A DNA stretch of 64,000 nt from assembly GCA_016195685.1 (NCBI GenBank), contig JACPZE010000003.1:899-64898 (forward strand), given 5' to 3'. Positions 17,089-55,563 of this stretch are shown here, piece after piece. Positions within the stretch are counted from its first letter, which is position 1; every line of letters begins with the position of its first letter. Origin of the DNA: Candidatus Gottesmanbacteria bacterium (lineage in GTDB: Bacteria; Patescibacteriota; Microgenomatia; 2-02-FULL-39-11). A program made the translations under genes and the position numbers. The notes under the pieces are model-generated. The model was not told the origin of the DNA, searched no databases, and worked only from the letters and a program-made list of their open reading frames with translations.

Positions 17089-17134
17089 ACGGTAAACTTG
17101 ACAACCATTATAAAACCATTATAATTATAATAAT

Positions 17135-17416
17135 ATGAATACAACAATAATTCAGGTTCCAGTAACTAAGGTATTACGAGATCAAGCCGTCAGAGTTGCT
17201 CAAGAAAGCGGCTTTTCGTCTCTCCAAGATGTAATCAGAATTTTTCTTACCAAGCTGGCAAGAAAGCAAATTGCAGTCAACTTAGAAGATACCTCAATGC
17301 CATTAAGCTGGAAGAACGAAAAAAGATATATTCGGATGGATAAGGATTTTGATAAAGGCAAAAATGTGAAATCGTTTTCTTCTGTTGAAGAGCTGATGAA
17401 AAATCTACGGGCATGA
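17135..17416 (+). CDS. RelB/DinJ-like antitoxin
   Basis: 93 aa; N-terminal ribbon-helix-helix-like segment; ATGA overlap with downstream toxin. Confidence 0.45.
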   Translation: MNTTIIQVPVTKVLRDQAVRVAQESGFSSLQDVIRIFLTKLARKQIAVNLEDTSMPLSWKNEKRYIRMDKDFDKGKNVKSFSSVEELMKNLRA

Positions 17417-17676
17417 TAGTTGAAAGGCACAAACAATTCCTCAAAAATTATCACAAACGTATCATCCCTCATCCCACCATAGATCATAAATTTGAAGAAA
17501 GATTAAAATTATTCCTACTTGATCCAAAAAATCCAATTCTGAAGGATCATCAGCTAACAGCCAAAAAGAAAGCATTTAGATCTTTCTCTGTAACTGGAGA
17601 TATAAGAGTGGTTTATAAAATAGAGGGAAACTCAATACGTTTATACGACATCGGAACTCACAATCAAGTTTATTGA
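17413..17676 (+). CDS. RelE/YafQ-family mRNA interferase toxin
   Basis: 87 aa; C-terminal pattern DHQLTAKKKAFRSFSVTGDIRVVYKIEGNSIRLYDIGTHNQVY typical of YafQ/RelE. Confidence 0.55.
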   Translation: MIVERHKQFLKNYHKRIIPHPTIDHKFEERLKLFLLDPKNPILKDHQLTAKKKAFRSFSVTGDIRVVYKIEGNSIRLYDIGTHNQVY

Positions 17677-17721: not shown

Positions 17722-17982
17722 TTAATAGTCGAATTCCAACGGTTTCCAAGATAGAGTATTTCTCAATTGACACCCTCCGTTTCCTTTCCTACAATCTAAA
17801 CTAAGCGCTTGCGTAGTTTCACAATACACTGATCCTACTCCATCTCCTTTATCTACACATACTAAATTTGGTTCCTGGCCAGTAGCTACCCTTCCTTTAC
17901 ACCAATTAGGCACAAATCTTTGCCTTGCTTGTTGCTCGATTTGTTCAACGTTTGCCATATTCAATTTTAACCTATAGTACAC
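17722..17982 (-). CDS. small Cys-rich hypothetical protein
   Basis: ORF only; five Cys in about 78 aa; no signal peptide; convergent with toxin gene. Confidence 0.25.
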
Positions 17983-18056: not shown

Positions 18057-18365
18057 ATGAAAGCTGGAATACATCCAACTTGGTATCCGGACGCACAAGT
18101 AGTGTGTGCCTGTGGTAATTCTTTTACGATTGGTTCTACCAAGCAATCTATCCACATGGAAATTTGCCACAAGTGTCATCCCTTCTTTACAGGAGAGATG
18201 AAATTCGTGGATACTCTGGGTAGAGTAGAAAAATTCCAAAAAAAGCAAAAAACAGCTGCCGCCCAAGCTCAAGTCCTGGCAGACAAGAAGAAAAAGAAAT
18301 TGCAAAGACAGGAAGAAGTCAGACACCCCAAATCCCTTCGAGAGATGTTAATGGGATCCTCATGA
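18057..18365 (+). CDS. rpmE: 50S ribosomal protein L31 with Lys-rich C-terminal extension
   Basis: [29 protein letters not shown]...[10 protein letters not shown]; start at internal ATG 18057; TGA stop overlaps next start. Confidence 0.85.
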
Positions 18366-19060
18366 ATAATGATGTTGCCATACTAGAAATAAGAGGTGCC
18401 ACCGGTGGCGATGAGGCGAAAATCTGGGCAAATGACCTAGTGCGTATGTATAGCCGATATGCTTTATCCAAAGGATGGACCGTGCAATCACTGGATGATG
18501 CGGTAATAAGGATAAAAGGATTAAATGCTTTCTCGCAACTTCAGTATGAAGGAGGGGTACACCGCGTACAGCGGATACCTAATACTGAAAGATATGGCAG
18601 AATCCATACTTCTACAGCAACTGTCGCAGTGCTCCCTGAAATTGCCGACAATCAAATTTATATTAACCCTTCTGAACTGGAATGGGATTTCTATAGAAGC
18701 GGCGGTCATGGAGGCCAAAATGTAAATAAAGTATCAACTGCAGTACGGTTGCGACATAAACCTACCGGCATGGTAGTCACGGCCTCACAGGAAAGATTCC
18801 AGGAACAAAACCGCAGAATAGCCTTAAATTTACTCCGCTCCAAATTATGGGAAATCGAAGAGGAAAAGCGCCTTGTGGAAATCGGCGGAGCCAGAAGTGC
18901 AATTGGTAGAGGCATGAGGTCTGAAAAGATCCGCACGTATAATTTTCCGCAGAACCGCCTTACTGACCACCGCATCAATAAAAGCTGGCATAATTTGGAA
19001 GATATTATGAACGGAAAATTGGATAAAGTCCTTACTACGTTACTGAGTACCGTCGTTTGA
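18362..19060 (+). CDS. prfA: class I peptide chain release factor (RF1-like) lacking N-terminal domain 1
   Basis: GGQ motif [11 protein letters not shown]; RF1-like recognition region [26 protein letters not shown]; begins at the position equivalent to E. coli RF1 residue ~105 ([11 protein letters not shown]). Confidence 0.75.
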
Positions 19061-20209
19061 TCCGATAGCCACCTTTAAATTCACGGTTTTGCCATCACGC
19101 CAAATTTCTATACTCAAAGTATCTCCTACTTTTTTCCCTGAAATGATAGAAGATAAGCCACCATTTGCATCCGTAATTTTTTTACCATCTATTTTGGTAA
19201 TGATATCATCGGTTTTTACGCCTGATTTATCGGCGGGTGAACCATTTACTACTTGTTGTACATATGCTCCCTCGGGCACTTCATTTAAAAGAGCCAGGTC
19301 ACGCGTAATCATCTTGTATCGGACTCCTAAAAACGGCCTCTCAAATTTGCCGCCGCTTTTATGGAACTGATCCAGTGCGTCTTTCACTACATTTATGGGA
19401 ATTGCAAAACCTATGTTTTGCCCATCGGCTGAAACAGCCGCATTTATACCAATTACTTGCCCGGAAGAATTAAGCAGTGGTCCACCTGAATTACCCGGGT
19501 TTATTGCCGCATCTGTCTGGATGACGTTATCCAATCTTTCTACAGACCCCTCGTAGGGACTGCCTGCTGTGATACCTCTTCCTAATCCAGAAATCACCCC
19601 TACAGTCACTGTATTTCGAAATTCTCCGAGTGCAGTACCTATAGCGATAGCCATCTGGCCTACTTTGAGTTTTGAGGAATCACCCAGTGTAACAGGTTTT
19701 AAGTCAGTAGAATCGATTTTGATAATGGCCAAATCGTTTGCCGGATCGCGATAAATCTTTTGGACGTCGTATGATTTATCATCTTTGGTCACAACTTTAT
19801 ATTTCGCTTGTGTATCAGAAACTACATGCTTGTTGGTCACTATCAAACCATCTGCCGAGACTACAAAACCGCTGCCGATATCCTGTTGTAATTTTTGCGG
19901 TTGATTCCCTTGGGGTTGTTGGAACATATTAAAAGGATCCATGGGGTTGATTTCAAAAATTTTTCCTATAGATTTGGATTGAACAATAGATACAGTAACC
20001 GTGGAAGGTGAAACTTTATCCACGACATCTGTAATAACAGATTCTTCTTGGACTATTTTCACCTTTTCCCCACTCGTATTAGTATCTAATGAAGATTTTG
20101 AGGGAAGATAATTTTTCAGGGAATTTAAATTCAGTTTAAAGCTCCCGGTAGATGTGCCAATCAAAAGAAATATGATAATAAGAGCCGCTAATATGAGTAC
20201 TCTTTTCAT
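19040..20209 (-). CDS. HtrA/DegP-family serine protease with PDZ domain
   Basis: signal anchor; trypsin-like catalytic region GNSGGPLLN; C-terminal PDZ. Confidence 0.85.
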   Translation of the reverse strand: MKRVLILAALIIIFLLIGTSTGSFKLNLNSLKNYLPSKSSLDTNTSGEKVKIVQEESVITDVVDKVSPSTVTVSIVQSKSIGKIFEINPMDPFNMFQQPQGNQPQKLQQDIGSGFVVSADGLIVTNKHVVSDTQAKYKVVTKDDKSYDVQKIYRDPANDLAIIKIDSTDLKPVTLGDSSKLKVGQMAIAIGTALGEFRNTVTVGVISGLGRGITAGSPYEGSVERLDNVIQTDAAINPGNSGGPLLNSSGQVIGINAAVSADGQNIGFAIPINVVKDALDQFHKSGGKFERPFLGVRYKMITRDLALLNEVPEGAYVQQVVNGSPADKSGVKTDDIITKIDGKKITDANGGLSSIISGKKVGDTLSIEIWRDGKTVNLKVAIGSNDGTQ

Positions 20210-53373: not shown

Positions 53374-55563
53374 ATGTATACTTATATTATGAAGGAAGAA
53401 AAAGTAGTATTGGAGCTTCGGACTCCCAAAACAGCCGAGGAAACACCTGAACATATGCAGCAGGTTTTCTCCGCGCTTTTTTCCGGCGGACACATCCCCC
53501 ATTGGAAAAGGCTTTGGATAAAAGTACGCACCCTTTCTTTTGAAATCGCATCGTTTAACCAAAGCATACATTTCTATACCGTTATCCCTAGGCCTTTTAA
53601 GACCTTCATCGAAAGCCAGCTCACCAGCCAGTATCCCAAGATCCTTATATCCGAAACGCCGGATTACATGGCAAATATCACCAAAAACAGATTTTTAGCC
53701 ATAGGAAATCTGCAACAAGCCGCCCCATTTTATTACCCTATAAAAACTCATGCGGATTTTAAAGAAATTGATTCCATATCTTCTATTCTGGGTGTACTCT
53801 CCAAATTCAGCCCGGAGGAAAGCTGCGTCATACAGATGGTGATAGAACCTCCGCATTTCAACTGGCAAGGTATGATACAACGGATGGTAGACCGAGGCAT
53901 TCCCGATCCTACTACCACGGCACCCAACCGGACCAAATCATTCCCTCATGCAAGTTTGATCGAGCAGAAAGTCAAACAAAGTGGTTATCGTACCTACATC
54001 AGAATCATGGTAGGAGCAGAAGATAACAAAAAAGCCCTATCCCTTCTTTTTAATATCGCCGGATCGTATGGAGCCTTTGCCTTGGGTGAAGGCAATAGAC
54101 TTGTTCTTCGTCGTCCCAGGCTTTTTTGGAAAAAAGTCATCTACAATAGAATACTGAAGCGCGAAAAAAGCCATTATCCCAGACACCAGGTATTAAATAC
54201 AGGCGAACTGGCTACCATCTGGCATCCGCCCACGATGCTACTTGCTGGGATAAAAAATATCGTCTGGGGCAGATCACTCGTGGGAGAACCTCCCCAAAAT
54301 CTGCCTGTTGCCGCAAATATCACAGAAATTGAAAAAGGGGATATAAATTTCATCGCCCGGGCTGAATTTAAAAATACCCTCACCACTTTTGGTATAAAAA
54401 GACCGGACAGAAGAAAACACATTTACATAATAGGGAAAACCGGTACCGGTAAATCTACCATGATCGCCAATATGGCTATAAACGACATGAGGAATCGGGA
54501 AGGTCTAGCTGTCATAGACCCTCATGGAGACCTATCTGACATACTTTTAAATTATATTCCCTCATATAGGATAAACGATGTCATATATTTGGAACCTTTT
54601 GATGTGGAACATCCCTTTTGGATGAACCCGTTGGAAGTGAAAAATCCCATCCACAAAGAATTGGTCACCTCCGGAATCGTATCGATCTTTTCCAAGCTTT
54701 ATGCCAAATCCTGGGGTCCCAGGCTTGAGTATATACTGCGGAATGTCATCCTTACTCTTATGGATTATCCGGATGCCACACTGGTTATGGCTTTGGATCT
54801 TTTATCTGACCAGAATTTCCGCCAGGGAGTACTAAATAAAGTAGAAAATAAGATCCTGCAGAATTTTTGGCACAATGAATTTGACAAAATGCACCCCAGG
54901 CTTAAAAGCGAGGCTATAGCTCCAATTCAAAATAAAGTAGGCCAGTTTGTACAATCTCCCACTATACGTCAAATCATCGGACATCCTACATCTACCATAG
55001 ACCTGGAGGAAGTGATGAACCAGGGGAAAATACTGATACTGAATCTTGCACAGGGTAAATTGGGTGAAGACAACGCAGCGCTTTTGGGTGCCATGTTTAT
55101 CACCAAAATGCAATTGGCAGCCATGAACAGGGTAAATTTGCCGGAGGAACAGAGGCGTGATTTCTACCTTTATGTAGATGAGTTTCAAAACTTCGCTACC
55201 ACATCTTTTATAAAAATATTATCTGAGGCGCGGAAATACCGCCTTGATCTTATCATGGCCAACCAATACATCGGACAAGTGGAGGAAGAAGTGCAAAAAG
55301 CTATTTTTGGCAATGCCGGATCTCTTATTTCTTTTGTCATCGGCGCCCAGGATGCTAGTGCTCTGACTAAGGAATTCGGCCAGTGGTATAAAGAAGAAGA
55401 CCTTGTAAATTTGGGTTCTTATCAGATAATCATCAAACTGGCTATAGATAACCTGACTTCACTTCCATTTCACGCACTCACTTTGCCACTTCCTAAATCA
55501 AAGAATCAAAACCGCGATAAAGTCGTGCGCCTCTCCAAAGAAAGATACACTAAGAAGCCTTAG
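53374..55563 (+). CDS. FtsK/HerA/TraG-VirD4-superfamily P-loop ATPase (DUF87/T4CP-like), 729 aa
   Basis: Walker A IIGKTGTGKST followed by AVIDPHGDL; Walker B LYVDEFQNF; downstream RKYRLDLIMANQYIGQ arginine-finger/Q motif region; non-TM 340-aa N-terminal domain. Confidence 0.6.
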   Translation: MYTYIMKEEKVVLELRTPKTAEETPEHMQQVFSALFSGGHIPHWKRLWIKVRTLSFEIASFNQSIHFYTVIPRPFKTFIESQLTSQYPKILISETPDYMANITKNRFLAIGNLQQAAPFYYPIKTHADFKEIDSISSILGVLSKFSPEESCVIQMVIEPPHFNWQGMIQRMVDRGIPDPTTTAPNRTKSFPHASLIEQKVKQSGYRTYIRIMVGAEDNKKALSLLFNIAGSYGAFALGEGNRLVLRRPRLFWKKVIYNRILKREKSHYPRHQVLNTGELATIWHPPTMLLAGIKNIVWGRSLVGEPPQNLPVAANITEIEKGDINFIARAEFKNTLTTFGIKRPDRRKHIYIIGKTGTGKSTMIANMAINDMRNREGLAVIDPHGDLSDILLNYIPSYRINDVIYLEPFDVEHPFWMNPLEVKNPIHKELVTSGIVSIFSKLYAKSWGPRLEYILRNVILTLMDYPDATLVMALDLLSDQNFRQGVLNKVENKILQNFWHNEFDKMHPRLKSEAIAPIQNKVGQFVQSPTIRQIIGHPTSTIDLEEVMNQGKILILNLAQGKLGEDNAALLGAMFITKMQLAAMNRVNLPEEQRRDFYLYVDEFQNFATTSFIKILSEARKYRLDLIMANQYIGQVEEEVQKAIFGNAGSLISFVIGAQDASALTKEFGQWYKEEDLVNLGSYQIIIKLAIDNLTSLPFHALTLPLPKSKNQNRDKVVRLSKERYTKKP

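Follow-up and report, generated by a model that had tools for sequence, protein, structure and literature searches.

A probable naturally minimized release factor 1 without domain 1 in Candidatus Gottesmanbacteria and related Microgenomates

Can a bacterium terminate translation with a release factor 1 (RF1) that has no domain 1? The question is raised by a 64,000-nucleotide stretch of DNA from Candidatus Gottesmanbacteria (assembly GCA_016195685.1, contig JACPZE010000003.1, positions 899 to 64,898 of the forward strand; hereafter the window), in which rpmE, encoding ribosomal protein bL31, is followed by a 232-aa open reading frame (ORF; 18362–19060, + strand) that comprises only domains 2, 3, and 4 of an RF1-type class I release factor (RF). 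Domain 1 is a feature of essentially every RF1 and RF2 protein described so far. Its role is debated, with recruitment by bL12, dependence on uL11, and coupling to RF3 all under discussion. An earlier note on this DNA, written from the sequence alone, had drawn attention to the missing domain. Our analysis makes it likely that this ORF is a housekeeping RF1, orthologous to prfA and naturally minimized, and that the minimized form is typical of a large part of the Microgenomates.

The absence of domain 1, as the earlier note had proposed, was borne out by profile and alignment comparisons. Residues 5–228 matched positions 105–339 of the 347 in the NCBIfam RF1 profile (NF001859; 316.7 bits), the Pfam PCRF domain was matched over positions 100–194 of 194 only (1.9e-33), and the Pfam RF-1 domain was complete (positions 3–116; 2.7e-35). 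In alignment, the protein begins at approximately residue 108 of Escherichia coli RF1, in the first strand of domain 2. The N-terminal helical domain 1, which comprises about 100 residues in E. coli and 84 in Thermotoga maritima, is wholly absent.

What is left resembles RF1 more closely than any other member of the family. The earlier note had suggested alignment to the RF1, RF2, PrfH, and ArfB profiles; RF1 scored best, ahead of RF2 (208.4 bits; cut-off 370), PrfH (62.2 bits; cut-off 166.65), which matched in the GGQ domain only, and ArfB (54 bits; cut-off 100), which matched over residues 96–132 only. Sequence matches to PDB entries told the same story (1e-57 to 1e-73 for RF1 versus about 1e-39 for RF2): residues 85–321 of T. 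maritima RF1 gave the best match (3e-73), and E. coli and Thermus thermophilus RF1 were matched over residues 111–344 and 106–339, respectively. Identity to canonical RF1 is approximately 46–50% over domains 2–4 (e.g., T. maritima 1RQ0 and E. coli 5J30; the E. coli reference sequence used in the alignment was checked to be identical to 5J30). An AlphaFold (AF2) model built from a 49-sequence family alignment (mean pLDDT 79.6) aligns structurally with the ribosome-bound RF1 of T. thermophilus and of E. coli across about 241 columns (Foldseek E 1e-20, TM 0.62). Nor is this a frameshifted prfB, a point on which we agree with the earlier note: the RF2 motif SPF is not present, with PNT in its place, the RF2 profile scores 208 bits against 316.7 for RF1, and the ORF has no internal in-frame stop. 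The protein, encoded on a contig of Candidatus Gottesmanbacteria (Microgenomates, candidate phyla radiation (CPR)/Patescibacteria), is 100% identical to MBI3379257.1, which is annotated as a "PCRF domain-containing protein"; pipelines apply this label to such proteins because they score under the RF1 equivalog cut-off.

Judged by alignment, the decoding module of domains 2/4 and the GGQ module of domain 3 are both retained, and no known stop-codon-reading or catalytic residue has been lost. The element G15-G16-D17-E18-A19 at the start of helix alpha5 (18404–18418, + strand) aligns with E. coli G120–A124, and across 49 family members its G15, G16, E18, and A19 do not vary; in published RF1–ribosome structures, this element reads the first stop-codon base. 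The PxT stop-codon recognition tripeptide of RF1 is represented by P73-N74-T75 (18578–18586, + strand), aligned with E. coli P188-A-T190, with P73 invariant and T75 at least 90% conserved among the 49 relatives. The catalytic G117-G118-Q119 (18710–18718, + strand) is invariant in the family and aligns with E. coli G233-G234-Q235. More broadly, Q70, P73, T75, E76, and H82-T83 are invariant or nearly so, and the same is true of the set Q70, P73, E76, T83–T85, GGQ117–119, and E144-R145, which aligns with E. coli Q185, P188, E191, T198, GGQ233–235, and E260-R261. The earlier note had thus been right that the GGQ and an RF1-like codon-recognition region are kept. It had also singled out "PNT in place of PA/VT"; the tripeptide is there, but its middle residue varies freely within the family (N, K, T, A, R, Q, or S), so PNT is an ordinary PxT variant without special meaning.

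Could the short length be an artefact, because the start was mis-called, the assembly or reading frame contains an error, or the gene is a decaying pseudogene? The DNA comes from a metagenome-assembled genome (MAG), and the RF frame is open for 46 codons 5' of the ATG. These codons contain no start codon, are bounded by an in-frame stop, and all lie within rpmE, so there is no coding room for domain 1, as the earlier note had stated. A hidden N-terminal part was considered and rejected for the same reasons, the 46 open codons being without a start and their bounding stop lying inside rpmE.

Comparison with relatives bears on the same question. We scanned one genome per GTDB species using patterns specific to the short form, which yielded 80 loci from Gottesman-, Woese-, Shapiro-, Ames-, Pace-, and Daviesbacteria and TM6, and took the number of residues before the GGxEA motif as a measure of N-terminal length (119 in E. 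coli, 96 in T. maritima). Approximately 37 of the 80 loci have only 12–19 such residues (two of them have 26 when the first ATG is taken as the start) and encode proteins of 227–245 aa; these short forms were found in Gottesman-, Woese-, and Shapirobacteria. Among protein clusters at 90% identity, the best 120 listed are all 210–253 aa long, with 69–100% identity to the window protein, and those that are named belong to Gottesmanbacteria. Relatives therefore do share the short form, which the earlier note had left as a question. Every short locus has an in-frame stop 12–52 codons upstream of GGxEA, and the upstream sequence codes for rpmE in another frame. The start itself is conserved, as "MN.D/N" 14 residues ahead of GGxEA, and the catalytic motifs are invariant. 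Nonsynonymous divergence (dN) between Gottesmanbacteria RF genes is 0.2–0.3 while synonymous divergence (dS) is saturated, indicating purifying selection on the short RF1. With the same architecture in about 37 independent species-level genomes as well as in the 120 best clusters listed, the comparative data effectively refute an artefact, and we return to a naturally short RF1.

The remaining loci suggest how this form may have arisen. An Amesbacteria subclade has about 31 residues before GGxEA, and all other loci have 56–102: roughly 79–102 in Pacebacteria, Daviesbacteria, and TM6, with the wider Amesbacteria clade holding forms of both 56–82 and about 31 residues. The PCRF profile match starts at position ~42 in the intermediate forms versus ~100 in the short ones. 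What the intermediate forms retain is limited to a helical hairpin (about 50 aa) and a low-complexity linker, roughly half of domain 1, so in this part of the tree domain 1 had already been halved. One such form (P0121, 303 aa, locus L004) is 64% identical to the window protein and has the same synteny, and its RF1 keeps a 70-aa N-terminal remnant.

Domain 1 is not the only part missing. A 10-residue hairpin of domain 2, corresponding to approximately E. coli residues 151–160 and including Glu155/His156, is deleted at the junction D45|D46 (18494–18499, + strand; located by alignment), and the spacing from GGxEA to HRVQR is 52 residues versus 60–62 in canonical forms. The C-terminal tail is also shorter than in canonical RF1. 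Across the 80 loci, the hairpin deletion occurs in all short forms and in some intermediate ones, and for this reason it appears to be older than the complete loss of domain 1. Beyond what the earlier note had recognized, then, the trait is lineage-wide and recurrent, and comes with loss of the domain-2 hairpin and a shorter C-terminal tail.

How often domain 1 was lost was addressed with a bootstrapped, RF-only neighbor-joining tree of the shared region. In 95 of 100 replicates, the short forms group together with five longer sisters. The Amesbacteria-type clade has the support of 60 of 60 replicates, and because it contains both states, the Amesbacteria-type loss is independent. Domain 1 has thus disappeared independently at least twice. 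Further domain-1-less RF1 proteins occur in two divergent groups: P0127 (232 aa, locus L089), whose gene overlaps rpmE by 17 nt, and P0136 (242 aa, loci L090 and L091), which has a GTGA overlap with rpmE and retains the domain-2 hairpin.

Some features of these relatives deserve separate mention. The EF-Ts gene beside the P0136-type short RF1 encodes only 131–149 aa, about half the usual length (L090, 2408–2803; L091, 2404–2853), and may be another minimized translation factor in that lineage. P0123 (477 aa), a full-length RF1 representative, carries an exact internal duplication of about 120 residues across the PxT-to-GGQ region, probably an assembly artefact rather than a true tandem duplication. 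In a Daviesbacteria-like contig (L088, 885–1133; P0279), the ORF after rpmE is an 82-aa residual domain 1 that stops 6 nt before the contig end, the gene could be split, or a frameshift or an assembly error could be responsible. Finally, many third-party-annotated MAG records (L009–L087) titled "uncultured Gammaproteobacteria", "uncultured Pseudomonadales", "Clostridia", or "Thermodesulfovibrionales" hold Microgenomates-type rpmE–RF1 loci; these labels look to be wrong or placeholders.

The upstream neighbor, rpmE (102 aa; 18057–18365, + strand), was identified by Pfam PF01197 over residues 1–63 (2.1e-27) and by NCBIfam L31. At the junction, tcctcATGAataatg, read directly from the sequence, the RF ATG (18362–18364) begins one base ahead of the rpmE TGA (18363–18365), giving an ATGA overlap (18362–18365, + strand). 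The earlier note had inferred translational coupling to rpmE from this overlap; the overlap is real here, but as a conserved feature it fails, since of the 80 loci scanned just L014 and L015 have it too. What is conserved is the adjacency of rpmE and prfA: an extended rpmE (94–131 aa) immediately precedes RF1 in each of the 80 related loci, at spacings of −20 to +537 nt. The window bL31 bears a Lys-rich C-terminal extension of about 35 aa after the L31 domain (18247–18362).

This arrangement invites the idea that another element stands in for domain 1, in trans or as part of a fusion: a separately encoded domain 1, the bL31 extension, or an L31–RF fusion made by −1 frameshifting. The two genes are always adjacent and here overlap, bL31 has its ~35-aa extension, and the RF frame, −1 with respect to rpmE, is open through a Lys-rich AAG/AAA stretch. 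However, the variable spacing leaves no conserved frame for a fusion, and −1 frameshifting on the AAG/AAA run was rejected given the range of −20 to +537 nt in relatives. The bL31 extension is present whether RF1 keeps a partial domain 1 or none, and enlargement of bL31 is a general CPR feature (PMC9297842). When 15 residual domain-1 sequences were used as tblastn queries, there was no match either in the window or in the surroundings of the short genes, and a profile search for stand-alone domain 1 in a set of 5.8 billion proteins recovered only two end-of-contig Daviesbacteria-like fragments, a weak negative. Supply of domain 1 from another source is therefore extremely improbable, and an RF1 that works without it is the better account.

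The rpmE–RF slot also bears on whether the short gene is instead an accessory paralogue (PrfH-, ArfB-, or ICT1-like, or some specialized RF) with a full-length prfA elsewhere. Known natural RF-family proteins without domain 1, such as PrfH and ArfB, are accessory factors (PMC1586002), and the genome-scan patterns were specific to the short form. Against such a role, the RF1 score of 316.7 bits compares with 62 for PrfH and 54 for ArfB, and the protein has PxT and its decoding residues complete, in contrast to PrfH, where they are altered, and ArfB, where they are missing. The gene sits in the rpmE–prfA slot that holds the longer RF1 of sister lineages, the synteny on which its orthology to prfA rests, it nests within the Microgenomates RF1 tree, and it has no adjacent RtcB-like partner. 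No second RF gene was found by tblastn with the RF in the window, nor with a verified E. coli RF2 in 87 related loci. An accessory role thus strikes us as very unlikely compared with that of the housekeeping RF1.

Stop-codon usage in the window is consistent with a working RF1. The 58 long ORFs end in TAA (36), TGA (15, including rpmE), and TAG (7). RF1 activity is still needed because UAG is in use as a stop, and with TAA, TGA, and TAG all serving as stops, the genome must also encode an RF2 at another position. One might alternatively suppose that the minimal factor is the sole class I RF and reads all three stops in a genome that has no RF2, given that TGA ends 15 of the 58 long ORFs and that no prfB was found in the window or the 87 related loci. 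The missing prfB means little because a 64-kb window is only a few percent of the genome (the largest contigs of relatives reach approximately 1.1–1.2 Mb); likewise, prfB, prfC, and rplK of Gottesmanbacteria did not fall within the loci fetched, and viral contigs contained no Microgenomates RF1. The RF1-specific determinants PxT, Q70, and H82-T83 are canonical, with nothing like the RF2 SPF, and the known UGA-recoded CPR lineages are Gracilibacteria and Absconditabacteria, not Microgenomates. A single factor for all three stops is, in our judgment, a most improbable arrangement, and we continue with an RF1 restricted to its usual codons.

Loci with a short RF1 use TAG less often: 84 of 522 stops (16%), and 30 of 265 (11%) in the Gottesman clade, compared with 101 of 441 (23%) in loci keeping at least 56 N-terminal residues (chi-square p = 0.0096 for short versus longer forms and 0.0002 for the Gottesman clade, in tests that ignore shared ancestry). 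TGA accounts for 25% of stops in the domain-1-less loci versus 17% in those keeping at least 56 N-terminal residues, and GC content is similar between the two groups (0.41 vs 0.42). The association of lower TAG use with a short RF1 is no more than suggestive.

Given the anatomy, conservation, orthology by synteny, and recurrent loss described above, how might such a factor work? We infer its release activity, codon specificity, kinetic consequences, and link to RF3 as follows. The minimal RF1 would bind the A site at UAA and UAG and hydrolyze peptidyl-tRNA like canonical RF1. Engineered E. coli RF1 without domain 1 releases peptides in vitro, works in vivo, and does not stimulate RF3, according to the work of Mora et al. 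(2003) as summarized in PMC1586002. In termination complexes of E. coli, RF1 domain I is linked to uL11 by the C-terminal domain of bL12, depletion of bL12 slows RF1 binding 150-fold, and Glu155/His156 make contact with the P/P-site tRNA at its anticodon stem-loop, a contact that is gone when RF1 is destabilized (PMC6076264). Because domain 1 in E. coli is in contact with bL12/uL11 and reacts to RF3, and the hairpin reaches the P-site tRNA, the minimal RF1 probably makes fewer peripheral ribosome contacts, having lost one to the stalk (domain 1) and another to the P-site tRNA (hairpin). Recruitment via bL12 may then be slower, spontaneous dissociation easier, and binding weaker or shorter-lived, and the factor may recycle without RF3. 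RF3 is missing in 72 of 191 genomes, a lack for which weaker RF binding has been proposed to compensate (PMC1780047); weaker binding of the minimal RF1 would correspond to that proposal.

Taken further, loss of domain 1 could be a recurrent, selected trait of Patescibacteria with at least two to four origins (Gottesman-, Woese-, and Shapirobacteria; the Amesbacteria subclade; P0127; and P0136), often following halving of domain 1 and deletion of the hairpin. It could mark a lineage-wide rewiring of termination in which RF1 is no longer recruited via the bL12/uL11 stalk and leaves the ribosome unaided, without RF3, with lower UAG usage as the footprint of a weaker RF1. We put this broader scenario forward tentatively, as a possibility that we find slightly harder to accept than to doubt.

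Several observations weigh against our interpretation. RF3-less bacteria such as Bacillus retain domain 1, so the absence of RF3 alone does not account for its loss. The whole-protein score lies under the NCBIfam RF1 equivalog cut-offs (316.7 vs 400 for NF001859 and 308.4 vs 423.25 for TIGR00019), with the first ~105–110 profile positions absent. Monophyly of the short forms was recovered in only 19 of 100 replicates, which leaves one or two losses between Gottesmanbacteria and Woese/Shapirobacteria. The search for a second RF reached across the 64-kb window and about 10 kb around prfA in the 87 loci.

The genes around rpmE and the RF gene form a recognizable neighborhood. The order hisS–EamA–rpmE–RF, followed by htrA and ctpB on the opposite strand, is conserved among relatives. 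In the window, a convergent htrA/DegP-like serine protease gene (19040–20209, − strand; Pfam Trypsin_2 and PDZ) overlaps the 3' end of the RF gene by 21 nt (19040–19060), with no terminator-like hairpin between the two; we regard it as genomic context outside the RF system, and an htrA-like neighbor was also found in L001–L003. Upstream, a consensus scan picked out a promoter-like site (TTGACA, 17-nt spacer, TACAAT; 11/12 matches; 17767–17795, + strand) about 260 nt from rpmE, a candidate promoter for an rpmE–RF operon. The same ~380-nt spacer upstream of rpmE contains an 86-aa ORF without a Pfam match (17722–17982, − strand) that overlaps the promoter-like site (17767–17795), and is a candidate gene or rpmE leader; an Rfam scan of the rpmE leader region returned nothing relevant.

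Between the EamA gene and rpmE lies a toxin–antitoxin-like two-gene module (17098–17676), consisting of a 93-aa ORF without a Pfam match (17135–17416) and, overlapping it by 4 nt, a gene for an 87-aa YafQ-family toxin (17413–17676; PF15738, 1.1e-08). A perfect sigma-70 consensus (TTGACA, 16-nt spacer, TATAAT) is found by this module at 17098–17125. Since the EamA–rpmE gap is only 19 nt in L001, this segment of about 970 nt is an insertion specific to this genome. Elsewhere in the window (53374–55563), a 729-aa protein combines a TrwB/VirD4-type coupling-protein domain (PF10412, 2.5e-12) with a HerA/DUF87 ATPase domain and may belong to a mobile element or to a type IV secretion or conjugation-like system.

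RF1 itself is well known, and a natural RF1 without domain 1 appears to be undescribed: we found no published description of one, in CPR bacteria or otherwise, including in a survey of CPR ribosomes (PMC9297842). If our interpretation is correct, domain 1 is dispensable in vivo over evolutionary time, beyond engineered E. coli constructs, and the radiation offers a natural experiment on its role. Such lineages would provide a concrete system for termination and RF recycling without RF3, a question raised in 2007 (PMC1780047), and natural factors of about 230 aa could be of use in structural work and in reconstituted or minimal translation systems.

Among known systems, the engineered truncated RF1 and RF2 of E. 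coli have the same domain 2–4 architecture as the window RF, and they show codon-specific release in vitro, with truncated RF1 supporting growth (Mora et al. 2003, as summarized in PMC1586002). Those constructs are artificial and operate in a host with RF3, whereas the window RF is natural, conserved, and lineage-wide, and carries an additional hairpin deletion. PrfH (RF-H, TIGR03072) is likewise natural, without domain 1, and encoded from a start near or overlapping the upstream gene (PMC1586002). It differs in its altered decoding region, its obligatory upstream RtcB-like partner, and its accessory role, the upstream gene of the window RF being rpmE. ArfB, ICT1, and C12orf65 also lack domain 1 and share the GGQ domain, yet a C-terminal tail takes the place of the codon-reading domain 2/4 in these proteins, whereas the window RF has the full decoding domain. 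Compared with canonical RF1, the window RF keeps PxT, GGQ, the alpha5 GG(D/E)E element, the Q/H-T third-base readers, and the switch-loop region, and its gene shares the rpmE–prfA neighborhood, but it has neither domain 1 nor the hairpin at E. coli 151–160, and its C-terminal tail is shortened. Further counterparts are the reduced RF1 proteins of other Microgenomates, Pacebacteria, and TM6 (282–340 aa), orthologues in the same rpmE–prfA context, some of which share the hairpin deletion; they keep about half of domain 1, and the window RF keeps none.

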